Notes: generated by a model from the letters alone, not told the origin. A stretch of DNA of 64,000 nt from Nitrospinales bacterium (GCA_965223795.1 CBDCXL010000002.1:2308030-2372029), one strand, 5' to 3'. Shown: positions 5,134 to 45,530, counted from the stretch's first letter. A program made the numbers and translations.

Positions 5134-5624
5134 CCTGTCATCCTGTGCGTTGGTTGTTGGGAATTTCCTCGATCCCGGTTGGTGCGGGAGCGCCGATCGT
5201 GCCGGGTCTCTGCGTCCCGAAGGGTCCGAAATGCCCAGTGAGAACGAGGAACCGGAAATGAAACCCCGACCCACCGTTACAGGAGGGCTCAGCGGGCGCG
5301 CTGTTTTTATCGCTCCCAGGCCTGGCGGATGCGATCGCGGACCCACTCCCTGTTCGGTGAATCGGTGACGAGAAGCTATTCTTATAATGGAATTTAAGTG
5401 CAAAATCCAATATTTTTAGGCCCTCTGAGCCTATAAGGATGCGGAATCGCTGGCAATGGATTCGAGATCCCGAAAAAGAAGGGATTGTCAGGAAACAGGG
5501 TGTGGTGGTGTGATGCTGCGGGATGAAATTACGGTTTCTGTGACTTGGGAGGTGGCGGTGCGTTGCTAAAGGGGAAACGCTGTGGCGGTTGCTGCAAATG
5601 CTTCAGGAAATGGGGCGGGGGGTT

Positions 5625-6713
5625 TTACTTCTGTTTTTCGTCTTCGGGGGTCTCGGTGTCGTCGCCGCTGTCTTCCAGCTCCAGATCGTCGATGGCGAGA
5701 TCGGGTTCGCCCAGATCGTCCATCTCGGCGGTCAGTTCGTTGTCGAGCAGGTCCTCTTCGGATTCCCCGTCGAAGCTCAGGTCTTCCAGCTCCAGTGAGG
5801 GGTCCAGTTCGAGATCGCCTTCATCCAGCTCGAGGTCCGGCTGCAGGTCCATGTCGGCGCCGGTTTCTTCCGGCTCGTCGATGGTGAGATCCGTGTCCAG
5901 TTCGATTTCGTCGACGGCGATGGCACTGTCTTCCACTTCGACGGCGGTGTCATCCAGATCGCCGGTGTCCACGGCGACTTCTTCGTCCTCATCGAGGGAA
6001 ATCTCGTCCATGGCGATTTCGCCGCTGTCCAGATCGTCCATCAATTCGATCCCGGTATCCGGTTCCTCCGTCTTGACGGCGATTTCTCCGGTTTCATCGA
6101 CCTCTTCGACGGCTTCAGAATGCGGCTCTATTTCGGTTTCGGTGATTTCGGCGGTTTCCGGCTCGGATTCGGCGATTTCCGCGGCGGCTTCGGTGTCCAC
6201 CAGCTCCGCCTCATCGGCGATTTCGGTCACGGCCTCGGCGGGGGCGTCCTCCATCGGAACGAATCCCAGGCCTTCCACTTCGATTTCATTCAAGGAATAT
6301 TCATCGGAATCGGCTGCAGGAGCGAAGGAACCCATTCCATACGGTGTTTCCATCATGGAAGCGGATTCGAAGGCAACCGCGTCGGAAAGGTCCAGCTCAA
6401 ACACGCCTTCGTCCTCATCCATGAATTCAGCAGCGAACCCTTCGGATGCGGGCGAGGAGTCGAACAGACTCGGGTCCATACCGCCCAGGGATTCCTGACC
6501 GGCCATGTTTTGCTCGGAAGCCGCCTCAGCGGTCGCAACAGCCGCTTCCGCCCCGGCTGCGGCGAATATGGTGAACATATTCTCGGCATCGAGGTCGTGG
6601 GCGCCATTGGATGCGTGCTTCTTGAAGTTGAAGCCGCAATTGCCGCATTTGGGGACCGTTTTGAATACGATGTAACCACATTTCGAACATTGCATAGTTC
6701 CAACATAAGACAT
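5625..6713 (-). CDS. Zinc-ribbon protein with long polyacidic low-complexity tail
   Basis: The N-terminus CSKCGYIVFKTVPKCGNCG carries two CxxC pairs. The remaining ~330 aa are dominated by D/E, L and A (LELDEGDLELDPSLELEDLSFDGESEEDLL...). ATG at 6695 is an alternative start. Confidence 0.6.
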   Translation of the reverse strand: MSYVGTMQCSKCGYIVFKTVPKCGNCGFNFKKHASNGAHDLDAENMFTIFAAAGAEAAVATAEAASEQNMAGQESLGGMDPSLFDSSPASEGFAAEFMDEDEGVFELDLSDAVAFESASMMETPYGMGSFAPAADSDEYSLNEIEVEGLGFVPMEDAPAEAVTEIADEAELVDTEAAAEIAESEPETAEITETEIEPHSEAVEEVDETGEIAVKTEEPDTGIELMDDLDSGEIAMDEISLDEDEEVAVDTGDLDDTAVEVEDSAIAVDEIELDTDLTIDEPEETGADMDLQPDLELDEGDLELDPSLELEDLSFDGESEEDLLDNELTAEMDDLGEPDLAIDDLELEDSGDDTETPEDEKQK

Positions 6714-23699: not shown

Positions 23700-24934
23700 T
23701 CACTATAATGCAGGGACCCACGCGGAGCAAGGCCGCGGGAGTTGCTGTGGCAATGGCGGGGAACGCGGGGAAATGCGTGAAGCGGGGATAATATGCGGTA
23801 TTGGGATTGATATGAAAAATGCCTCGCCCGTTGCCGATCCAAAGAAAATTCAAAAAGCGGCTGGTTGAAGCGCACCCGTCCTTGACATGGGAATGGGATT
23901 GAAACCGGAAAACCTGGACACGGACGGGCGAGGCATTGAAAAGCAAGAAAGGAGGCGGGTTGCTATTTTGACAAGCGAAACGGCGTGAGTTTCGCTGTGC
24001 CACGAAAAGGAGGTTCCATCATCTTTGTACGCCACTTGGAAGGAATTCTGTTGCCGATACAAATGCAGGTTTCGGCTGGCGCTCGTTGCATATGGGGGTA
24101 TGGGAAGGGGTTTGAGACTGGCGTACATCCCGTTCGCTATCATCCTTTTCTCGAAAGAATTCCGGGGATGTGTCTCGTTCAAGATGGATTCCTCTCTTTC
24201 AACAGCAACCCGCCAGTGGAAGTTCTTATCCGCAGAAAGCGGCGGGTTGATCGTGAATGGTGCCGATAAAAATTATTAATATGCCGATAAAACCTAGATT
24301 TTGTAACCGATTAGGGCCGTCCAGCACCCCCTATCTAGTGTGGCCAGAGAACGGTAGCACTACATATAGTGGCCTGTCAAGGGCTAAAAATTAAAATTTC
24401 TTCATTTTCAGGATATTGGCAATGATATCAATATGTTATATGGAGGAACTTTTTCCGGAGATCCGATTTTTTTGCCACCGGATACTACATAATGTGTCCT
24501 CATACTTCGCATAATCTACATATTGTGGGGTGTCGCTTTCCCGCGGGCGTGCCGTTTTCCGGAATATCGGAGGGAGCGCTTTTATTTCAAGGAGCTGCAA
24601 AATAAAAAACCAGCGATTTCCTCATTTTACGGGGCGGACGCCGAGGCTTTCCATTAACCATTTGTTATTAAACAGCTTATTTTTCCTGTGGATAAAATTG
24701 TGAGTTTCGGGCTTTCACGCCCTGTTTTGCCGGCCGCCCTTCACCCCACGGAATCGGATTATTCGTTCCGAAAAGCACTCTGTGGCCGCCTGATCCCCGG
24801 TTGCAGGAAAAATGTGACCTGGCTCCGGTTTCGGTTTTTTCCCTTCATTTCTCCGGCAGGGTTTTTCGGTTTATCCCGCCGGTCGATCGGGATGGCTGCA
24901 CAGTTCTCTGAAACACATCGGATTTTATGTGGTT

Positions 24935-25296
24935 TCAGTTGAGCCGGGTGCGGATGCTCTGCGTGTCGACACGGCTGTAATGGCCGTTGGGCTCGCATTT
25001 CGCGAGAGAAAAACAGTCCTCGGTGCCCAGATCGCACAGAAACTCCACCGCGAGCGCCTGACTCTGGCATTCGGGGCAGCCCTTTCCGGTGAGGTGCGCT
25101 TTCACCTTGCCGAGCAGGCCTTCCTGCGTTTTGCGGTCCTGGGTGACGATGAACTTGTAATGGCAGTGCCCGCACGCGGCCTGGGTGTCGCAGAGACCGC
25201 GGCAGCTCGCAGCTCAGTGACTTCAAACCGGGTGTTGAGGCAGACGGGACAGGGGATTGTTTGAATCAGGGTTTCCACCACTTCCAGTGTGCTCAT
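24935..25296 (-). pseudogene. Cys-rich (multiple CxxC) small protein, reading frame broken near 25205-25218
   Basis: The ATG frame (25296) reads MSTLEVVETLIQTIPCPVCLNTRFEVTEL and then turns Ala/Pro/Arg-rich. A second frame has no start codon and is closed upstream by TGA. It reads (AAS)CRGLCDTQAACGHCHYKFIVTQDRKTQEGLLGKVKAHLTGKGCPECQSQALAVEFLCDLGTEDCFSLAKCEPNGHYSRVDTQSIRTRLN to the stop at 24935. The 362-nt span is not a multiple of 3. Confidence 0.5.
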
Positions 25297-32676: not shown

Positions 32677-33525
32677 TCAGAGAAGGGTCAGCACCGCCTG
32701 CGGCGTGAGATTGGACTGGCTCACCATGGCGGAACCGGCCTGCACCAGGATCTGGTTTTTGGTCAGCTCGGCGAGTTCCACCGCCAGGTCCGCGTCCTTG
32801 ATGGTGGTCAGGGCGTCGGTCAGCCCCTCGATCGTCACATTCAGGTTGTTCAGCGCCCGGGCGACCCGGTTCTGGGTGGCGCCGACCCGGCCGCGGATTT
32901 CGTTGAGAATGTCGATGGCGTCGGTCAGCGCGCCGAGAGCCTCAAACGCATCCGCCTGGGTGACGATGGTTTCATTGTCGATGCCCAGCGATTCGGCGGT
33001 CACCTCGGTGAGGTTGATCGCCTGATTGAGGTTGATGCGGCTGTCGGAGGTGGAGTCCAGCCCGACCTGAATCACGATGTTCTGCGATGCGCCGGCGGCG
33101 AGGGAACCGTCGATCAGTTTCTGGCCGTTGAACTCGGTGGTGTTGGCGATGCGGTCGAGCTCTTCGCGGAGCGCGTCGAATTCCAGCTGGATGGTCTCCC
33201 GCTCGGTGCGGCCGATGGTGCCGGTGGCCGCCTGGGATGCCAGCTCGCGCAGGCGGATGAGGATGCCCGCCTGCTCGCTCAAAGCGCCGTCCGCGCTGTT
33301 GATCAGCGCCTTGCCGTCGTTGAGGTTTTTCGCTCCCTGCTTGAGAGCCTGGACGTCGGAGGTCAATCCTTCGGAGATGGCGAGGCCGGCCGCATCGTCG
33401 GAACTTTTGGTGATGCGGATGCCGGACGCGATGCGGGAAATCGAACGGCCCAGCTGCGACCGGTTGGACTCGAGCGCCCGCTGCGAATTCAATGAGGATA
33501 CGTTGGTGAATATTTTGAGTGACAT
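32677..33525 (-). CDS. Flagellin (divergent paralogue, 282 aa)
   Basis: The conserved N-terminal D0/D1 region is NVSSLNSQRALESN...RIASGIRITKSSDDAAGLAISEGL and the C-terminal region is ELTKNQILVQAGSAMVSQSNLTPQAVLTLL. There is no large variable domain. Confidence 0.95.
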   Translation of the reverse strand: MSLKIFTNVSSLNSQRALESNRSQLGRSISRIASGIRITKSSDDAAGLAISEGLTSDVQALKQGAKNLNDGKALINSADGALSEQAGILIRLRELASQAATGTIGRTERETIQLEFDALREELDRIANTTEFNGQKLIDGSLAAGASQNIVIQVGLDSTSDSRINLNQAINLTEVTAESLGIDNETIVTQADAFEALGALTDAIDILNEIRGRVGATQNRVARALNNLNVTIEGLTDALTTIKDADLAVELAELTKNQILVQAGSAMVSQSNLTPQAVLTLL

Positions 33526-33610
33526 TCTTTTCCTCCCTGAAAAGATTCAAGCCACAATATTTTTTTATCCGATGAGCTTCTGCCGTGTGGTGTCCGGCGG
33601 ATTCTCCCGT

Positions 33611-34468
33611 TTACTGGAGCAGCTGCAGCACCGACTGCGGGATCAGGTTGGCCTGACCCACCATGGCCGTGGCCGCCTGCACCAGAATCTGGTTCCGGGT
33701 CAGAAGCGCGACTTCTTCCGCGATGTCGGCATCGCGGATGGCGGATTCCGCTGCGGACAGGTTTTCCACCGAAATCGACAGGTTGGCGATGGTGCGCACC
33801 AGCCGGTTCTGCACCGCGCCCACTTTACCGCGGCCCTGGGTGACGATGGAAATCGAGTTGTTCAGCAGGTCCAGCGCGGTCAGCGCGGCGCCGGCGGTGG
33901 TCACGCTCAACACGTCGATACCGAGGCTCGAGGCGGTGATGGCCTGCAGGTTGACCTCGGTGTTGAGGTTGATGCGGCTGTCGGTGGTCGCGTCGATGCC
34001 CACCTGGATCAGAATCTGATTGGTGAAGGCGACCGACGAGGCCAGCGAGCCGTCCACCAGTTTCTGGCCGTTGAACTCGGTGGTGGCGGCGATGCGGTCG
34101 ATTTCGGACCTGAGCGCGTCGAATTCCAGCTGAATGGTCTGCCGCTCGGTGGAACCGACGGTTCCGGTGGCGGCCTGGGAGGAGAGTTCGCGCAGACGGA
34201 TGAGAATACCCGACTGCTCGTTGAGCGCGCCTTCGGTGACGTTGATGAGGGAGATGCCGTCGTTGGCGTTGCGGATGGCCTGCCTGAGGGCGCGGATGTC
34301 CGAACGCAGCGCTTCGGAAATGGCGAGCCCGGCGGCGTCGTCGGCGCCGCGGTTGATGCGGATGCCGGACGCGATGCGCTCGACCGAGATGGCCAGCCTG
34401 TCGTTGTTGATGCCCAATATGCGCTGGGCATTGAGGGAGGGGATGTTGTTAAAGATTCTTATCGGCAT
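33611..34468 (-). CDS. Flagellin (285 aa, member of a near-identical trio)
   Basis: MPIRIFNNIPSLNAQRILGINNDRL...GADDAAGLAISEAL...LTRNQILVQAATAMVGQANLIPQSVLQLLQ supports the call. Confidence 0.95.
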   Translation of the reverse strand: MPIRIFNNIPSLNAQRILGINNDRLAISVERIASGIRINRGADDAAGLAISEALRSDIRALRQAIRNANDGISLINVTEGALNEQSGILIRLRELSSQAATGTVGSTERQTIQLEFDALRSEIDRIAATTEFNGQKLVDGSLASSVAFTNQILIQVGIDATTDSRINLNTEVNLQAITASSLGIDVLSVTTAGAALTALDLLNNSISIVTQGRGKVGAVQNRLVRTIANLSISVENLSAAESAIRDADIAEEVALLTRNQILVQAATAMVGQANLIPQSVLQLLQ

Positions 34469-34640
34469 GTGCCTAATCCTCCTTGATTATTGAAACAATC
34501 ACTTGCCTAGCCCCAGCTTCCTTGCTGGAGCCTGCCTGCTAATATCATCGGATGGGGTGTTTTTTTCGGGGCAACCTCCAAATGCAGATGGATGACGTGT
34601 TTCTTCCGGTCGTTTTGCAAGAGCAATGCAACTTTTGGTT

Positions 34641-34668
34641 GTATCGGGATTTTGAAAAATTACCTTTA
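34641..34668 (-). promoter_or_regulatory. Sigma-28 (FliA)-type promoter candidate for flagellin 33611..34468
   Basis: The minus strand reads TAAA-N16-CCCGATAC, against the consensus TAAA-N15-GCCGATAA. It lies ~170 nt upstream of the ATG. Confidence 0.5.
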
Positions 34669-34765
34669 AGGCTTTTTTCCCGGCTGGAACGGCGTCAGGG
34701 GAAGGGGAGGGCGGTGGGCGGTGCGGCGGTGCGGCGGCGCGCTGCAACGCGGCCGGTTGCGGGGA

Positions 34766-34796
34766 GCAAAAAAAAGCGCCTCCGGGGAGGAGGCGC
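34766..34796 (-). terminator. Rho-independent terminator downstream of flaG
   Basis: The hairpin GCGCCTCC-gggga-GGAGGCGC is flanked by an A8 run on the plus strand, which is a U-tract on the minus transcript. Confidence 0.65.
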
Positions 34797-34845
34797 TTTC
34801 GTTTTGCGTGTGCTTTCAAAGAGCACGCAAGAGCTTCAATAAAAC

Positions 34846-35175
34846 TTATGCGAACTCATTGAAGAAATCCCCTGGGGAGGGAGCGGGACGATTTTTCACC
34901 AGGGAAAAATCGTCCCGAGGAATCTGAACCACGATTTCCCCGGTTTTTGCGTTGATCACCTGGACGATCAATTCCTGAGAATCGTGATCTACCTGGAAAT
35001 CCACTTTCCGGTTCATCGTTCGTGTCAGATGGCCGTTTTCCTCCACCAGGATTTTATCCGGATGCGGCTTGCCGGAATCGGCCGAGCTGGATTCGTTTCC
35101 GGATGTTTTGAGACTCAAAGGCTTCTTAGGCGGAGGCCTAGGCACCGCCACATCCAGAGAAACTTTCAAAGACAT
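34846..35175 (-). CDS. flaG: FlaG-family flagellar protein
   Basis: ATG at 35175 sits behind GGAGGTGA. The C-terminal half, KVDFQVDHDSQELIVQVINAKTGEIVVQIPRDDF, matches the FlaG pattern. The gene starts 53 nt downstream of a flagellin stop. Confidence 0.75.
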   Translation of the reverse strand: MSLKVSLDVAVPRPPPKKPLSLKTSGNESSSADSGKPHPDKILVEENGHLTRTMNRKVDFQVDHDSQELIVQVINAKTGEIVVQIPRDDFSLVKNRPAPSPGDFFNEFA

Positions 35176-35228
35176 GCGGATCACCTCCAGAAACACTTTA
35201 AAATTTATAATCAGTTAAGGGGTATACC

Positions 35229-36086
35229 TTAACCTAAAAGCTGAAGTACGGACTGCGGCAGCAAGTTGGCCTGTCCGACCATGGATGTCGCCGACTGCAC
35301 CAGAATCTGGTTCCGGGTCAGGGTGGCGACTTCCTCCGCGATGTCGGCATCGCGGATGGCGGATTCTGCGGCCTGCAGGTTTTCCACCGTGATGGACAGA
35401 TTGCCGATGGTGCGCACCAGCCGGTTCTGCACCGCACCCACCGCGCCGCGGCCCGCCGTGACGATGGCGATGGCGGAGTTGATGGTGTCGAGCGCGGTCA
35501 ACGCGTTGCCGGCCGTGGTGACGCTCAGACCCTCGATACCGAGGCTGGTGGAGGTGATGGCCTGCAGGTTCACCTCGGTGTTCAGGTTGATGCGGCTGTC
35601 CGAGCTGCTGTCGATGCCGACCTGAATCAGGATCTGATTTGCAGAGGCGACCGAAGAAGAGAGCGAGCCGTCGACCAGTTTCTGGCCGTTGAACTCGGTG
35701 GTGGCCGCGATGCGGTCGATCTCATTCCTGAGAGCGGTGAACTCGAGCTGGATGGTGGCGCGCTCTGTGGAACCGACGGTACCGGTGGCGGCCTGGGAGG
35801 AAAGCTCCCGCAGACGGATGAGAATCCCCGACTGCTCGTTGAGCGCACCTTCGGTGACGTTGATCAGAGAGATGCCGTCGTTTGAGTTGCGGACGGCCTG
35901 CCTCAGTGCCCGGATGTCGGAGCGGAGTGCTTCTGAAATGGCGAGCCCGGCGGCGTCGTCGGCGCCGCGGTTGATGCGGATACCGGATGCGATCCGTTCT
36001 ACCGATTGCGCCAGGCGGTCGTTGTTGATGCCCAATATGCGCTGGGCATTGAGCGAAGGAATATTGTTGAAGATTCGAACTGGCAT
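35229..36086 (-). CDS. Flagellin (285 aa)
   Basis: MPVRIFNNIPSLNAQRILGINNDRLAQSVERIASGIRINRGADDAAGLAISEAL... supports the call. It aligns without gaps to ORFs 33611..34468 and 36709..37566. Confidence 0.95.
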   Translation of the reverse strand: MPVRIFNNIPSLNAQRILGINNDRLAQSVERIASGIRINRGADDAAGLAISEALRSDIRALRQAVRNSNDGISLINVTEGALNEQSGILIRLRELSSQAATGTVGSTERATIQLEFTALRNEIDRIAATTEFNGQKLVDGSLSSSVASANQILIQVGIDSSSDSRINLNTEVNLQAITSTSLGIEGLSVTTAGNALTALDTINSAIAIVTAGRGAVGAVQNRLVRTIGNLSITVENLQAAESAIRDADIAEEVATLTRNQILVQSATSMVGQANLLPQSVLQLLG

Positions 36087-36282
36087 TGCCTCATCCTCCT
36101 TGATGTATGATTGTCGTCAGGGTTATTGTTTTGGCCTCCATACCAAAACAAGCCTCCAAGCTTTAACCCTTGAGTGGAGAATCCCTTTCCCCACCCTGAA
36201 ACATTCGTTTCCGGTCACCTCCTTGATTTTAAAATTGTTATCAAAATTCCGCGAAATGCGGCACAACTTCCCTCAATCAGGC

Positions 36283-36309
36283 CTATCGGACGGAGCGAGA
36301 TGAACTTTA
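36283..36309 (-). promoter_or_regulatory. Sigma-28-type promoter candidate for flagellin 35229..36086
   Basis: The minus strand reads TAAAGTTC-N11-TCCGATAG (TAAA-N15-TCCGATAG). It lies ~195 nt upstream of the ATG. Confidence 0.6.
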
Positions 36310-36669
36310 ACGATTTGTCCGGGAAAAATGCTGCGGTGAAACTCGGAGGTACGGTGACAGACGGGGTGGGGAAGAAACAACGAGCGGTATTTTAGGGAAT
36401 TTCGCGGGGGACGGGAGGCTGAGAAAAAGCGGTGTGAAAAGGGACCCAGAAACGCCCGGCCTCTCCTAAGATCGCGCTTTGTGCGGGGAGAATGAGGGCG
36501 CTGGCTTGGGAAAAGGTTCGGGCCGCCCGGAACGGGCGCGGTTTCTGGGTCCCAACAAGGCTTCGCAGCGTGCGCGGGCCGTGCGTTGCGACCGGCCCGG
36601 ATTGCTGTCGTGCTGCGATATGTCTGAGGAGCGGGGGATTTGTGTGGCCATCATTTGAGATCGCCTCCA

Positions 36670-36698
36670 GGCCGGGACGCGGAATCGCGATCCCGGCC
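36670..36698 (-). terminator. GC-rich stem-loop immediately downstream of flagellin 36709..37566
   Basis: GGCCGGGA...TCCCGGCC contains an inner CGCG/CGCG pairing. There is no clear U-tract, so terminator function is uncertain. Confidence 0.4.
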
Positions 36699-36708
36699 TG
36701 AGAATGGA

Positions 36709-37566
36709 TCAGCCTAAGAGCTGAAGGACGGATTGCGGCAGCAGGTTCGCCTGTCCCACCGCGGAGGTTGCGGTCTGCACCAGGATCTGGTTCCGTGTCA
36801 GCGTGGCCACTTCTTCGGCAATGTCGGCGTCGCGGATGGCGGATTCTGCGGCCTGCAGGTTTTCCACGGAAATCGACAGGTTGCCGATGGTGCGCACCAG
36901 CCGGTTCTGCACCGCACCGATGGCGCCGCGGGAGGCGGTGACCGAAGCGATGGCGGTGTTGATGGTGTCGAGTGCGGTCAGCGCGTTGCCGGCGGTGGTG
37001 ACGCTGAGTGAGTCGATCGACAGCGTCGTGGAAGTGACGGCGGTCAGGTTCACCTCGGTGTTGAGGTTGATGCGGCTGTCGGCGGAGCTGTCGATGCCGA
37101 CCTGAATGAGGATCTGGTTCGCGGAGGTGACCGAGGACGCCAGCGAGCCGTCGACCAGTTTCTGGCCGTTGAACTCGGTGGTCGCCGCGATGCGGTCGAT
37201 TTCGTTTCTGAGCGCCGAGAACTCAAGCTGAATGGTGGCGCGCTCGGTGGAGCCGACGGTTCCCGTGGCTGCCTGGGAAGCGAGTTCCCGCAGGCGGATG
37301 AGGATGCCGGACTGCTCGTTCAAGGCACCTTCCGCTACGTTGATGAGCGAGATGCCGTCGTTTGAGTTACGGACGGCCTGCCTCAGTGCCCGGATGTCGG
37401 AGCGGAGTGCTTCTGAAATGGCGAGCCCGGCGGCGTCGTCGGCGCCGCGGTTGATGCGGATACCGGATGCGATCCGTTCCACCGATTGCGCTAGGCGGTC
37501 GTTGTTGATGCCCAGGATACGCTGGGCATTGAGTGAAGCGATGTTGTTGAAAATTCGTATTGGCAT
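36709..37566 (-). CDS. Flagellin (285 aa)
   Basis: MPIRIFNNIASLNAQRILGINNDRLAQSVERIASGIRINRGADDAAGLAISEAL...QANLLPQSVLQLLG supports the call. Confidence 0.95.
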   Translation of the reverse strand: MPIRIFNNIASLNAQRILGINNDRLAQSVERIASGIRINRGADDAAGLAISEALRSDIRALRQAVRNSNDGISLINVAEGALNEQSGILIRLRELASQAATGTVGSTERATIQLEFSALRNEIDRIAATTEFNGQKLVDGSLASSVTSANQILIQVGIDSSADSRINLNTEVNLTAVTSTTLSIDSLSVTTAGNALTALDTINTAIASVTASRGAIGAVQNRLVRTIGNLSISVENLQAAESAIRDADIAEEVATLTRNQILVQTATSAVGQANLLPQSVLQLLG

Positions 37567-37773: not shown

Positions 37774-37800
37774 TTATCGGCAGCCGGAATTAGAACTTTA
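37774..37800 (-). promoter_or_regulatory. Sigma-28-type promoter for flagellin 36709..37566
   Basis: The minus strand reads TAAAGTTC-TAATTCCGGCT-GCCGATAA. This is an exact TAAA-N15-GCCGATAA, ~205 nt upstream of the ATG. Confidence 0.75.
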
Positions 37801-37825: not shown

Positions 37826-38563
37826 TTAGCGCCGCCAGTCTTTTTGCGCGACATGGGCGTTGCATTTCGCCAGCTCGGGATGGGCGTTGAGATAAGCGAG
37901 AACCTGCTCCAAATTGACGGTTTCGCCGGCGGGGTGGAAGAAACGCTCATGGATTGTTTGCATGAGGGTGACGTCTTCCTGCGTGTCCACGGTCAGTCGA
38001 AACGGCTGGTCCTTCAGATAAAGCGGAGCCGGCAGGTGGGCGATGCGGAAGGCATCGGGATGGTCCCTGAAATAGGTGGTGACGTGTTCCCGGTGCGCGG
38101 GAAGCGTCGTGCTTGCGGCGATCCGCTGCAACGCGGCAAGCCGGACGACCTCGGTGCCGGTGCCCAGAGGGATCGCATCGGGAGTGACGGTGTGATCGGC
38201 GTTGCTTTTAATATGCAGGTTTAACAGGGATTGCAGGAGGTTTATGTCGAACAGGGGATTGTCGCCGCAGACGCGGACCACATGCCCGGCGTTTACCGAT
38301 TGTGCCGCCATCAGGAAACGCGCCAGCACATCCTCCTCCGGACCCTGGATGAAACCGATGTCATATTTTTTTGCGGTTTTGGCGAGCGGTTTGTCCTTCG
38401 CCCCCTCGGGCGCGGCGAGGACGATGGCGCCGATCCCGTTCACCCGCTTGAGGCGTTTGATGATATGCTCGATCAGCGGCACGCCCGCCAGCGGCAGCAT
38501 CACTTTTCCCGGATAGCGGGTGGAGCCCATTCTGGCCTGGATGACGGCGGCGGTTCGGGTCAT
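37826..38563 (-). CDS. SpsF/NeuA-like cytidylyltransferase family protein (CTP_transf_3)
   Basis: The N-terminus AAVIQARMGSTRYPGKVMLPLAGVPLIEHIIKRL is typical of acylneuraminate-type cytidylyltransferase / SpsF proteins. Confidence 0.85.
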   Translation of the reverse strand: MTRTAAVIQARMGSTRYPGKVMLPLAGVPLIEHIIKRLKRVNGIGAIVLAAPEGAKDKPLAKTAKKYDIGFIQGPEEDVLARFLMAAQSVNAGHVVRVCGDNPLFDINLLQSLLNLHIKSNADHTVTPDAIPLGTGTEVVRLAALQRIAASTTLPAHREHVTTYFRDHPDAFRIAHLPAPLYLKDQPFRLTVDTQEDVTLMQTIHERFFHPAGETVNLEQVLAYLNAHPELAKCNAHVAQKDWRR

Positions 38564-41519: not shown

Positions 41520-42689
41520 ATGGAGCGAATCCTGCCGGCCCTGGACCGGACAATCGCCATCTGCCTGATGGTGTTTGCGGTTGCCTCGCAGTTTTCCATC
41601 AGCGTCACGCAGATCGCGTTCGCCGTGGGCACGCTGGCCTGGCTGATCAAAACCGGCCTGACCAAGGAGTGGCAGGCGGTGCGCTGGCCGCTGTGGATGC
41701 CGTTCGCCGCCTACTGCCTGGCGGCGGTGCTTGCGGTGGCGCTGGCGTACGATCCCGCCTACAGCGTGAAATCGCTCAAGAAACTGCCGCAGATCCTGAT
41801 CTTTTTCTGGGTGCTCAACAGCATCCGCGACGCGCGGCAGCGGGATTTTCTGGTTCTGCTTTTGATCGGCTCGGCTTCGGCGGCGGCGCTGTACGGGTTT
41901 TACCAGTCTCTGATGACGGAGGTGACGCTGGCAACGCGCGTCGCCGGCACGATGAGCATCTACATGACCTTCGCCGGGCTTTTGATGCTCACCGGATTGC
42001 TGGCGGCCGGGCGGCTGCTGTTCAAGGAACCGAGAGAACCCTGGCTGGCTCTGGCGGTGGCGGTGATCCTCGTCTGCCTGCTTTTGACGCTGACGCGTCA
42101 GGCCTGGCTGGGATTCTGCGCCGGGGCGGTGTTTCTGGTGTATTTCTGGCGAAGGATCTGGCTCTGGGCCATTCCGGTGACGCTGGCGCTGGCGTTTGTG
42201 CTGTCGCCGCCGGCGGTGAAGCAGCGCATTCTGTCGATGACGGACCTTTCGGACTGGACGGTGCAGTCGCGCCTGGCCCTGTGGCGGGGCGGCGTCGCGG
42301 TGGTGAAGGATTATCCGGTCACCGGCTGCGGCTTCCGCTGCATGGATCTGGTGCATCCCAACTACCCCGACCCGACGGGCTACATCGCCACGTACCGGGG
42401 CATGCACAACAACGCGGTGCAGGTGGCGGTGGACACCGGACTGCTGGGGCTGACCGCCTGGCTCAGCATCTGGGCGGCGTATTACTGGAATCTTTTCCGG
42501 CGGCAAAGGGACGGTGTATTTGACGCCGCTTCACGCTGGGTGGTGATGGGCAGCGCGGCGGCGGTGACGGGATTTCTGGCGGGCGGGATGTTCGAGGTGA
42601 ATTTTTACGATTCGGAGGTGGTCATGGTGCTGTATTTCATCCTGGCGCTGCCGTTTGCGGCCGGGAATGGCAAACAGGCGCTAGCGTGA
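41520..42689 (+). CDS. O-antigen ligase / Wzy_C-family polytopic membrane protein
   Basis: 389 aa with ~10 hydrophobic segments. LLLTLTRQAWLGF is the typical Wzy_C core. Confidence 0.8.
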   Translation: MERILPALDRTIAICLMVFAVASQFSISVTQIAFAVGTLAWLIKTGLTKEWQAVRWPLWMPFAAYCLAAVLAVALAYDPAYSVKSLKKLPQILIFFWVLNSIRDARQRDFLVLLLIGSASAAALYGFYQSLMTEVTLATRVAGTMSIYMTFAGLLMLTGLLAAGRLLFKEPREPWLALAVAVILVCLLLTLTRQAWLGFCAGAVFLVYFWRRIWLWAIPVTLALAFVLSPPAVKQRILSMTDLSDWTVQSRLALWRGGVAVVKDYPVTGCGFRCMDLVHPNYPDPTGYIATYRGMHNNAVQVAVDTGLLGLTAWLSIWAAYYWNLFRRQRDGVFDAASRWVVMGSAAAVTGFLAGGMFEVNFYDSEVVMVLYFILALPFAAGNGKQALA

Positions 42690-43207: not shown

Positions 43208-43735
43208 ATGAACGTGACCGCGACAGAAATCGAGGGGGTGTTCCTCATCGAGCCCAAGGTGCACAGCGACGCCCGGGGCCTGTTTTTTGAAAGCTATGTG
43301 AGGAAAAACTACGCCGATCACGGAATCGACGCCGAATTCGTGCAGGACAACCATTCGGTTTCCCGCAAGGGGGCGCTGCGCGGACTGCATTTTCAGGAGA
43401 ACCCCGGCCAGGCGAAGCTCGTGCGGGTGGGCCGGGGAGAGGTGTTCGATGTGGCGGTGGATGTGCGCAAAGGCTCGCCCACCTTCGGCCGCTGGGTGGG
43501 AGCGCGGCTTTCGGAGAGCAACCACCTGCAGATGTACATCCCGGCGGGATTCGCGCACGGGTTCTGTGTGCTGAGCGAATCGGCGCTGTTTCTGTACAAA
43601 TGTTCGGATTACTATTCCCCGCAACGGGAGCGCGGCGTGCTGTGGAACGACCCCGACATCGGCATCGAATGGCCGATCGCAGACCCGATCCTGTCGGAAA
43701 AAGACAAAACCCTGCCTCGCCTCAAGGACCTGTGA
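43208..43735 (+). CDS. rfbC: dTDP-4-dehydrorhamnose 3,5-epimerase
   Basis: IEGVFLIEPKVHSDARGLFFESY...RGLHFQ...KLVRVGRGEVFDVAVDVRKGSPTFG...IPAGFAHGF supports the call. Confidence 0.95.
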   Translation: MNVTATEIEGVFLIEPKVHSDARGLFFESYVRKNYADHGIDAEFVQDNHSVSRKGALRGLHFQENPGQAKLVRVGRGEVFDVAVDVRKGSPTFGRWVGARLSESNHLQMYIPAGFAHGFCVLSESALFLYKCSDYYSPQRERGVLWNDPDIGIEWPIADPILSEKDKTLPRLKDL

Positions 43736-43840
43736 TTTTCCCGCGAAATTTTTTCCCGCCGTTTCTCCGCTTGCCCTTTCAACACGCTAAATCCTGAATT
43801 AAAAAGGGCTTGAACTTGAGCCCCGCGCCTGAATTCCGCT

Positions 43841-43867
43841 TAATGTTTATGCAGGTAATGCCGATAA
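43841..43867 (+). promoter_or_regulatory. Sigma-28-type promoter candidate upstream of ORF 43893..44693
   Basis: TAATGTTT-ATGCAGGTAAT-GCCGATAA differs from the consensus TAAAGTTT-N11-GCCGATAA by one mismatch. It lies 25-50 nt upstream of the candidate starts. Confidence 0.65.
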
Positions 43868-43892
43868 AGTCCATAGCAGGGATCTTAAGGGA

Positions 43893-44693
43893 GTGACTGA
43901 TAAGGCGCAGCGGATCATGGCGATTTCAGAATTGAACCCAGTCCAATCCATTCTTTCCAGGCGCAGTTTCGCCTCTGCGATCGACGTTGCCTTCACGACC
44001 GGCCTGACGCTCAAAACCGACGAAGGGGATCAGGTCCGGCTTTCCTTTGAAAACCAGAGTTCCCTGGCCGAATCGGAATCCGAAACCCAATACGCCGACG
44101 GCAGCGCCGTGAAGGAGTTTTCCTCGGTGGCGGTGGCGGCGTACCGCTATTCGCTGTCGGTGGAGGGGGATCTGAATCAGGAAGAGCTGGATGCGATCCA
44201 GTCGCTGGTCCAGGAAATCGCGCCCATCGCGCGGCAGTTCTTCGCACGCGCGGAATTCGACATTGAAAAGGCGACCGAGGCGCTGAGCGGATCTCTGGGC
44301 GTCATCGAAGAGGTGGAACTCGCTTTAGAGCGGGTGATCACCGCGACCTTTTCCTCCCGCAGCGTCACAAACGGCGCGGCCGAGCCGGTTCCCGGAGCGG
44401 AAATACCGGCTGTGTCGTCCGAAAGCGAAGCGCCGGTGGATGCGGCGCAGATCCGCGATCTGCCTTCGCTGATTCTGGCCGCCACGGCATCCGAATTCGA
44501 GGCGCAGGCCGCCAAGCTGCCGCCGAAAGCGCCGATACTGCGTTCGCTGAACGACCTGATGAGTTTCCTGAGAGACCAGCTGGCGCAGTTTCTCGCTCCG
44601 CTGAAGCACTTCTCGCAGCCCGCGCCGGACAGCGTGCCGCAGAGCGAAGTTCCCGCCGCCTCCGGACAGGAAAATCCCGAACCGCAGTCCTGA
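43893..44693 (+). CDS. Acidic hypothetical protein, candidate sigma-28 regulon member
   Basis: Track ORF with GTG at 43893; ATG at 43917 (MAISELNPVQ...) is an alternative. There is no transmembrane segment or signal peptide and no motif I recognise. The protein is rich in A, S and E. Confidence 0.6.
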   Translation: MTDKAQRIMAISELNPVQSILSRRSFASAIDVAFTTGLTLKTDEGDQVRLSFENQSSLAESESETQYADGSAVKEFSSVAVAAYRYSLSVEGDLNQEELDAIQSLVQEIAPIARQFFARAEFDIEKATEALSGSLGVIEEVELALERVITATFSSRSVTNGAAEPVPGAEIPAVSSESEAPVDAAQIRDLPSLILAATASEFEAQAAKLPPKAPILRSLNDLMSFLRDQLAQFLAPLKHFSQPAPDSVPQSEVPAASGQENPEPQS

Positions 44694-44771
44694 TCACTCA
44701 CTTTTCCAACTGAACATTCAATAGAAGAAAAAGCCGGTCGTGCCCGGCGCTCGTTGCTTTTTGGGTGTGGG

Positions 44772-45530
44772 TCAGGGCATCAGTGCGCCGCCGTTGGGGT
44801 CGAAGGTCTGACCGGTGAAGGCGGTGGTCTCTTCGGCCATGAGAAAGCCGGTGAGCCGGGCGACGTCGGTGGGCTCGGACATTTTGCCCAGCGGCACTTC
44901 GCTCATGGCCCGCTGGTAGGCTTCTTCCTTGCTGATGTCGAACACCCGCGCCATGCCTTCCAGCCCCTGGTGCGCCATCGCCGTGTCCACCCAGCCGGGA
45001 CAGATGGCGTTGACGAGGATGTTCTGCGCGGCGAGCTCGGCGGCGAAGGCGCGCATGAGTCCCAGCATTCCGGCTTTCGAGGCGCAATAGCCCGTGTAGG
45101 CGGGGACGCCGAGCCGCGCCAGGATGGAGGACATCAAAACGATTTTCCGGTACGGGGCGGGGTCTTTTTTCAGATAGGGCAGGCATTCCTGCACGGTGTG
45201 GTAGCTGCCGCTGAGGTTGATGTCGATGATCTCGTTCCAGCGGTCATCGGCGCCATAGTGGTTTTCCCCGCCCACTCCGGCGTTGGCCACGACGCCATAC
45301 AGGGATTCGATGCCGCTCGCGGTGAGCGCTTTGCGGATGGCTTGCGGATCGCGCACGTCGGCGGAGTGGCTCTGGTGGTGTTCCGGCTGTTTGAGCGATT
45401 TGCGCGTGGTCTCCAGGCGCGACGCATCGCGTCCCAATAGCAGGATGGAGAATCCCATCCCTGCAAGGTGGTGGGCGATGGCTTCGCCGATGCCGCTGCC
45501 GGCGCCGGTGACAACGATGGTTTTTGACAT
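44772..45530 (-). CDS. Short-chain dehydrogenase/reductase (FabG-like)
   Basis: TGAGSGIG is present, with NAG and YxxxK motifs (YCASKAG). Confidence 0.9.
   Translation of the reverse strand: MSKTIVVTGAGSGIGEAIAHHLAGMGFSILLLGRDASRLETTRKSLKQPEHHQSHSADVRDPQAIRKALTASGIESLYGVVANAGVGGENHYGADDRWNEIIDINLSGSYHTVQECLPYLKKDPAPYRKIVLMSSILARLGVPAYTGYCASKAGMLGLMRAFAAELAAQNILVNAICPGWVDTAMAHQGLEGMARVFDISKEEAYQRAMSEVPLGKMSEPTDVARLTGFLMAEETTAFTGQTFDPNGGALMP

Follow-up and report, generated by a model that had tools for sequence, protein, structure and literature searches.

In a 64,000-nt stretch of a Nitrospinales bacterium genome (GCA_965223795.1, CBDCXL010000002.1:2308030-2372029; the whole analysed stretch is here called the window), we found a gene at 43917..44693 on the plus strand, hereafter the target gene, which is probably (about 0.6) transcribed alone, as a monocistronic unit of the sigma-28 (FliA) regulon and its late flagellar set. 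Its product belongs to a widespread uncharacterised protein family. From the promoter sequences it is highly probable that the gene is driven by sigma-28. A motility- or flagellum-related role of the product is reasonably probable, and its export by the flagellar type III apparatus is doubtful.

Promoter and gene

The elements of the transcription unit in the window are the following.

43841..43848, plus strand: -35 element TAATGTTT, sigma-28 (FliA) type, 1 mismatch to TAAAGTTT
43849..43859, plus strand: promoter spacer, 11 nt
43860..43867, plus strand: -10 element GCCGATAA, exact sigma-28 consensus
43874..43916, plus strand: predicted 5' untranslated region, the transcription start being placed ~6-8 nt past the -10 box from promoter geometry
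43902-43905, plus strand: weak Shine-Dalgarno sequence AAGG, 11 nt ahead of the ATG, also present in the related locus L001
43917..44693, plus strand: coding sequence, 258 aa and stop codon, start chosen from homologue N-termini and the database entry P0001

The FliA consensus of enterobacteria is TAAAGTTT-N11-GCCGATAA, and the sequence TAATGTTT-N11-GCCGATAA at 43841-43867 differs from it by 1 mismatch. A sequence-only reading of this DNA had claimed a near-consensus FliA promoter here, and both its coordinates and the single mismatch were borne out. The -10 box ends 49 nt before ATG 43917, thus a two-box promoter stands at a plausible distance from the start codon, as the sequence of a sigma-28 regulon member should have it. 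Scanning the window for the two-box motif with at most 3 mismatches gave 3 matches, with 0.32 expected, and 0 of 100 shuffles reached 3. All three were located upstream of correctly oriented genes: the target gene and two flagellin genes, the latter with matches on the minus strand at 37774-37800 (1 mismatch) and 36283-36309 (3 mismatches). With distances of 6.0 and 7.5 kb, the earlier statement of flagellin promoters with the same box style 6-10 kb away was roughly right. No sigma-70-like promoter was found in 43600-44900, no sigma-54 consensus matched anywhere in the window, and no non-coding RNA was found in the target-gene region.

The open frame beginning at GTG 43893 encodes 266 aa and the start at ATG 43917 gives 258 aa. 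The sequence AAGGGA directly abuts GTG 43893. Because the homologue N-termini align with the Met of ATG 43917, and because P0001, 100% identical to the target protein, has 258 residues, ATG 43917 is most likely the start. The frame 43893..44693 first proposed for a product of 258-266 aa therefore exists, with the shorter form preferred over the GTG start. Compared with the 79%-identical L001 copy, 123 codons are identical, 83 show synonymous differences and 49 non-synonymous differences; these proportions point to purifying selection on the protein, and we consider the gene real. Lack of conservation would have spoken for a non-coding frame, and the protein proved strongly conserved: 55 close homologues of 253-295 residues were found, and an exhaustive search with the profile, over 1.84 billion cluster representatives, revealed 1,442 proteins at E<=1e-3, with 170 at E<=1e-10.

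A scan of a genome collection yielded 42 loci, composed of 41 from Nitrospinota and one from Desulfurivibrio, so that the window copy makes 42 Nitrospinota sequences. A -10 box with at most 2 mismatches was located 51-87 nt before the start codon in 42/42 of these, and its CGA was invariant. With 2.0 bits, the CGA core carries the top information of the upstream region, in which the information peaks exactly on both boxes. The Nitrospinota -35 box is CT(A/T)ATGTTT, 11-12 nt upstream of the -10 box, with a T-rich tract farther up; the spacer is one nucleotide longer (12 nt) in most marine Nitrospinota than in the window and its closest relatives (11 nt).

The two-box scan, allowing at most 2 mismatches, was applied to both strands of all 465 kb of these loci, and the 46 matches fell into two kinds of position only: 27 just upstream of the target gene and 19 in a promoter region ~5 kb upstream. 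For 16 of the latter 19 a flagellin gene was confirmed downstream, 73-87% identical to the window flagellin, and these matches serve as an internal positive control. As the flagellin genes of the window and of the 16 loci carry the same motif, a FliA-type sigma factor is implied.

Two unusual arrangements were observed among these loci. The single-cell Nitrospinaceae genome at locus L037 contains two target-gene copies (5201-5911 and a second one downstream) with one small gene between them and with a separate box, TAATGTGA-N12-GCCGATCA, at ~7002 for the second copy. At ~570-1054 on the minus strand of L029, L033 and L036 there are two sigma-28-like boxes ~330 nt apart, upstream of the LD-carboxypeptidase region; neither a flagellin nor a convincing open reading frame (ORF) was found downstream of them, and they may drive a small gene or RNA.

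Outside the Nitrospinota the promoter could still be recognised. The Desulfurivibrio relative has TAAAGTTT-N12-GCCGATGG. Among genes of the type whose products contain the Pfam domain DUF5610, that of Colwellia has TAAAGATT-N11-GCCGATAT, those of Dongshaea and another lineage have TTAAGTTT-N11-GCCGATAC, and a further one has TCAAGTTT-N11-GCCGATAG. Scanning metagenomes with a different, 11-sequence subclade added 80 further loci, many of them with TAAAG-N14-(G/T)(C/T)CGATA(A/C), and a high-GC clade uses the variant CTAAAGTCC-N11-G(T/C)CGACA(T/C)A. We had considered that high-GC clade as sigma-28-negative and rejected this, its upstream sequences showing the variant box TAAAGTCC-N11-G(T/C)CGACA.

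Counted over 135 loci from several lineages, with upstream meaning within 700 nt, the strict consensus (at most 3 mismatches, with the CGA core) was present upstream in 63/135 loci, at 0.655 per kb versus 0.021 per kb elsewhere. The degenerate motif T[ACT]A[AT]G-N13-15-[GAT][CT]CGA[TC] was present upstream in 105/135 loci, at 1.165 versus 0.072 per kb; from the background rate we calculated that ~7 loci would have it by chance. Even the strict-consensus matches located elsewhere were mostly in the upstream promoter region (23/35, with a flagellin confirmed in 16 loci). It had been suggested to check whether orthologues keep a GCCGATAA-type box, and they retain it, as do very distant relatives.

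Protein family and predicted structure

The target protein has a mass of 27.5 kDa and a pI of 4.27, contains no Cys and no Trp, and comprises 14.7% Ala, 12.8% Ser and 10.5% Glu. Its highest 19-residue Kyte-Doolittle mean is 1.01, indicating no transmembrane segment and no hydrophobic signal peptide; the composition and hydropathy thus agree with the first description of an acidic, Ala/Ser/Glu-rich protein without either. The family as a whole is rich in Ala, Ser, Gln and Thr. Cys was absent from 135/150 family members (0.08% versus 1.19% in neighbouring ORFs) and Trp from 115/150 (0.13% versus 1.01%).

The first AlphaFold2 model, made with 23 sequences, was poor (predicted local distance difference test score, pLDDT, 54.5), and its Foldseek matches were meaningless. 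Using 150 diverse sequences, the block-mean pLDDT reached 91-97 for residues 11-150; for residues 1-10 the confidence was low (block mean 57). The product is predicted to have three parts.

43950..44369, plus strand: core domain, residues 12-151, from the AlphaFold2 model, common to DUF5610 proteins by hhalign
44370..44456, plus strand: acidic low-complexity Pro/Ser/Ala/Glu linker, residues 152-180, low pLDDT, no secondary structure, poorly conserved
44457..44615, plus strand: predicted C-terminal two-helix module, residues 181-233 (helices 182-199 and 211-233), model confidence only 50-70

In the model, the core comprises strands 12-34, 39-59 and 64-83, helices 88-111 and 116-124, and strand 130-151. 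The three first strands are long and antiparallel, and the fourth is also long. The hydrophobic core is built from strand segments beside the turns (L30, L32, V40, L42, F44, Y78, L80, V82, I130, V133, L135 and L137) and from one face of the long helix (L91, I94, L97, I101, I104, F108 and F109), and the distal halves of the core strands are rich in Ser, Thr, Gln, Ala and Glu. By column statistics two motifs in two loops are nearly invariant, T34-x-E36-G37-D38 and G84-D85-L86-N87..E90. The model would put both polar loops at the same end of the sheet, where they might form a conserved acidic patch. The C-terminal module has the conserved motif IRD..L.......ILRSLNDL..FL, which is the second matched stretch in the long-linker relatives; the tail beyond helix 211-233 is disordered in the model, with low confidence. 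Comparing the 150-sequence model with PDB and BFVD by Foldseek, we found no credible match (TM-scores <=0.36, root-mean-square deviation >10 Å). The type III class I chaperone fold (alpha-beta3-alpha-beta2-alpha) was also looked for, and there was no PDB match at E<=1e-3 and no chaperone in the top 50.

The part shared by the family is a beta3-alpha2-beta core of ~135 residues, roughly residues 25-140 of the target protein, and four architectures were recognised around it: the ~255-residue Nitrospinota form; proteins of 385-671 residues with long Pro/Ala-rich repeats between the core and the conserved C-terminal helices; forms with N-terminal extensions; and gammaproteobacterial proteins of ~400-480 residues in which the Pfam DUF5610 domain is followed by the core. 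The target protein contains the family motifs T-x-EGD and GDL..E..AI..FF, with the motif columns at least 90% conserved. Searching with a profile of the core domain returned mostly the same Nitrospinota proteins again. Four long members (P0102, P0108, P0110 and P0118; 474-671 aa) have tandem Pro/Ala-rich repeats (ASPALQNAQA...VENPV) in the linker position; in P0102, which has 474 aa, the linker takes up ~320 residues, and in the longest of them it is longer still, a more than 10-fold length variation within the family.

By hhalign, the Nitrospinota family aligned with the DUF5610 group over residues 19-155 at a probability of 99.5% (E=6e-23). The DUF5610 domain-containing proteins of Colwellia, Thalassotalea marina and Dongshaea marina (PF18433) have the same ~135-residue core as the target, with the motifs T-x-(E/D)GD and (V/I)-x-G-(D/E)-L-(N/D)..E..AI...FF in common; like the target they are uncharacterised and encoded by stand-alone genes with a sigma-28-type promoter. 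Unlike the target, they have ~400-480 aa, an N-terminal helical DUF5610 domain and different C-terminal regions, and their genes adjoin trmA, whereas the target gene adjoins rfbC. The shared core is not the Pfam domain: PF18433 gave no match in the target protein even at E<=10, and in the relatives P0132, P0137, P0153 and P0184 it lies N-terminal to the core. From these alignments we assign the target protein to an unnamed core-domain family common to DUF5610 proteins, and not to DUF5610 itself. Our literature search found no mention of DUF5610, PF18433, IPR041651 or VC0155.

Scans of the target protein with Pfam and NCBIfam at E<=10 gave only sub-threshold OspD (E=0.15) and CiaI (E=0.015), and PDB sequence searches with the family profile and with a DUF5610 relative or profile gave nothing meaningful. 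The protein had been called unannotatable, which holds for these curated libraries and understates a large family labelled "DUF5610 domain-containing protein" in Gammaproteobacteria. Models of FlgM, FlaG, FliS, FlgN, FliT and other named flagellar families in Pfam and NCBIfam did not match at E<=10. CiaI (NF041456) was the most frequent weak NCBIfam match, in 7/150 members with a best E of 3.6e-4. The target scored 15.1 bits on profile positions 48-87 only, against a cut-off of 290 bits, and 0/10 short, distant family members matched the model; on these grounds the CiaI match was not counted as homology.

Genomic surroundings

The target gene is flanked by the following features.

43208-43735, plus strand: dTDP-4-dehydrorhamnose 3,5-epimerase gene (rfbC), upstream neighbour
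44733..44748, no strand assigned: GC-rich hairpin GCCGG-tcgtgc-CCGGC between the target gene and the convergent SDR gene
44772-45530, minus strand: short-chain dehydrogenase (SDR) gene, convergent downstream neighbour

Both flanking genes are as had been stated, and neither is flagellar. The hairpin was scored as a minus-strand terminator, and a T run on the plus strand follows only 9 nt later; it could be considered a terminator of the target gene too.

Nitrospinota share a conserved order of LD-carboxypeptidase, hisF, hisA, sometimes a Wzy-type gene, rfbC, target gene, SDR, transglutaminase-like gene and 1-Cys peroxiredoxin, none of which is flagellar. The relative in Gammaproteobacteria is divergent from trmA, and in other lineages the neighbours are TerB, GH16, RraA, sulfatase, OmpA-like and other unrelated genes. 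The suggested check on whether orthologues sit in flagellar loci was negative, the neighbours being histidine, sugar, redox, tRNA-modification and other unrelated genes. Since the upstream gene is divergent in many loci, the gene needs its own promoter; and with unrelated neighbours everywhere, we regard the target, from the loci compared, as a stand-alone unit with its own sigma-28-type promoter wherever it was found.

Some further observations were made around the gene. At L006:5003-5635 (minus strand) and at the same place in ~25 other Nitrospinota loci, an extra gene of ~210 aa is located between rfbC and the target gene; it is divergent from the target, sometimes duplicated, without a Pfam match, and absent from the window. 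Four tandem flagellin paralogues of 282-285 aa (Pfam Flagellin_N and Flagellin_C) occupy 32677-37566 on the minus strand of the window. Their intergenic gaps span from 85 nt to ~620-760 nt, the 85-nt gap separating the two downstream copies. A recognisable sigma-28 box is present only for the two upstream ones; for the other two neither a box (at most 3 mismatches) nor a sigma-54 consensus was found. Sugar genes recur near the target gene: a CMP-sugar-type cytidylyltransferase gene beside the flagellins (37826-38563), a gene of the Wzy/O-antigen-ligase family (41520-42689) and rfbC in the window, and in L049:6154-10717 an acidobacterial relative lies beside glycosyltransferases and a Wzy_C gene. 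This may reflect a link to flagellin or surface glycosylation, or may be coincidence.

Farther off, the window has an ORF-poor region of ~1.4-1.7 kb at 23700-25100, with a GC content of 0.48 versus ~0.6 around it and no Rfam match. Two GCCGATAA boxes located 21 nt apart at 24262 and 24283 have no -35 partner. The GC content of the window is lowest (0.42-0.46) in the stretch after a tRNA gene (48056-48128), within 48000-50000; beyond it lie metabolic genes (methylmalonyl-CoA mutase, MeaB, acyl-CoA dehydrogenase and thiolase), with no obvious island.

Proposed role, alternatives and significance

We propose that RNA polymerase with the flagellar sigma factor would start transcription at TAATGTTT-N11-GCCGATAA, so that the protein would be made late in flagellar assembly along with the flagellins encoded 6-11 kb away, and would act in or with the flagellum. 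The product would consist of a two-layer alpha/beta core of ~135 residues, a flexible spacer of variable length and a C-terminal two-helix module, with the hydrophobic residues of the core packed in a compact centre, its beta arm long and polar, and its acidic pole (T-x-EGD and GDLN-x-EE) conserved. Described as a late-class, sigma-28-driven gene, it seems well supported, as the ORF is conserved and the box is retained in relatives. Of the roles suggested at first sight (chaperone, export substrate or regulator) none could be shown.

The flagellar type III channel is the route taken by flagellins, hook-associated proteins, FlgM and FliK, and typical of its cargo are the traits for which we weakly favour export of the target or its association with the flagellum: no Sec or Tat signal, few Cys and Trp residues, richness in Ala, Ser, Gln and Thr, a disordered N-terminus and a variable spacer. 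The protein might be a late substrate which leaves the cytoplasm through flagellar type III export, or might bind an exported or axial component. The CiaI and Fed proteins are co-expressed with late flagellar genes, and Barrero-Tobon and Hendrixson (2012) reportedly found the CiaI and FedB genes to be sigma-28-dependent. Small, lacking a Sec signal and forming no part of the flagellum, the CiaI and Fed proteins of Campylobacter jejuni leave the cell by its flagellar type III apparatus (PMC12445086). This secretion through the flagellum of non-flagellar proteins, among them CiaI and FedB (PMC12445086), provides a precedent of non-structural cargo, by which we lean towards an exported or flagellum-associated late protein. 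CiaI, however, is restricted to Campylobacter, whereas the target family spans phyla.

The late, sigma-28-dependent, exported regulators FlgM and FlaG resemble the target in promoter class, absence of a signal peptide, partial disorder and poverty in cysteine, and the logic would be comparable if the target were exported. The target differs in having no Pfam match to FlgM (PF04316) or FlaG (PF03646) at E<=10, in being 2-3 times larger, in its predicted well-folded beta-rich core, and in not lying beside flgN/flgA or fliD/fliS. The sigma-28 orphans of E. coli and Salmonella (YcgR, YhjH/PdeH, FlxA and YjcZ) are likewise monocistronic, located outside flagellar clusters and known by their FliA promoters. 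Those of known role act through cyclic di-GMP. The target has no sequence similarity to any of the four, and neither a PilZ nor an EAL motif.

Several points weigh against the proposed assignment. The FliA dependence is deduced from sequence. About 30 of the 135 loci fail the degenerate motif, some of them having truncated upstream sequence and some looser variants. The gene is never beside flagellar or chemotaxis genes except for two chemoreceptor cases, one a convergent gene in Desulfurivibrio and the other three genes downstream in L048, and fliA was not found in the window among the 40 ORFs scanned against Pfam. The depletion of Cys and Trp is suggestive only, as it also fits acidic low-complexity cytoplasmic proteins. 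Among flagellar proteins, chaperones and regulators Foldseek found no credible counterpart of the fold, and the weak similarity to CiaI got no reinforcement from the ten short, distant members.

The main rival explanation, to us rather unlikely, is a cytoplasmic late-class accessory, made once the hook-basal body is complete and either serving a late substrate as chaperone or adaptor, or modulating the motor, chemotaxis or sigma-28/FlgM. The promoter evidence serves it equally well, the protein is small, very acidic and soluble like FliS, FlgN, FliT and the type III chaperones, and the conserved acidic pole could bind a basic partner. Against this rival, Pfam gave no match to FliS, FlgN, FliT, FlgM, FlaG, PilZ or YcgR at E<=10, and the structural comparison with PDB found no type III chaperone; a spacer varying between ~30 and several hundred Pro/Ala-rich residues would be uncommon in a chaperone of the cytoplasm, and a near-total loss of Cys is unexpected for a cytoplasmic protein. 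Improbable in our judgement is a factor outside flagellar assembly that is only expressed in time with motility and is used, for example, in surface interaction, cell separation or colonisation, much as the Fed and Cia proteins are in Campylobacter or the autolysins in the Bacillus sigma-D regulon. The scattered position of the gene outside flagellar clusters would suit such a factor, as would the leading place of CiaI among the weak NCBIfam matches, and it is general knowledge that sigma-28 regulons include non-flagellar genes, which is also documented (PMC12445086). Gene and promoter are nevertheless kept in free-living marine, groundwater and wastewater lineages, pointing to a general rather than a niche function, and the CiaI match covers 40 profile positions only and is absent from the ten distant members.

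That the upstream motif is a chance occurrence or another regulator's site, the gene being read through from rfbC or from an unrecognised promoter, is very improbable. In the window rfbC is co-oriented and only 181 nt upstream, and we calculated that a lone -10 box with at most 2 mismatches would occur by chance in ~1/3 of 85-nt windows; but the position of the two-box motif is fixed in all 42 Nitrospinota sequences, the motif recurs in 105 of the 135 loci with 16- to 31-fold enrichment and marks the flagellin genes of the same genomes, and the upstream gene is often divergent.

On the proposed reading, we might speculate, with more doubt than conviction, that the target is an overlooked, phylum-spanning late flagellar component with a new fold, exported or bound to the filament, hook or export gate. 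To our knowledge E. coli and Salmonella may lack the family, which would explain the oversight.

FliA promoter logic is textbook; unusual here is an uncharacterised family that keeps this promoter across Nitrospinota, Gammaproteobacteria, Desulfobacterota and several high-GC lineages. Where regulation is kept between lineages so far apart, the function is usually linked to the flagellum itself, and the list of broadly conserved flagellar-regulon proteins without a known role is, as far as we know, short. The analysis therefore gives a concrete candidate with tractable relatives in culturable Gammaproteobacteria, a defined domain not yet modelled by curated libraries, and a predicted fold without a solved counterpart. 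The interest would be high if the protein were shown to be exported or to affect motility. For the Nitrospinota, the main marine nitrite oxidisers, it would add one more gene to a poorly studied motility programme.

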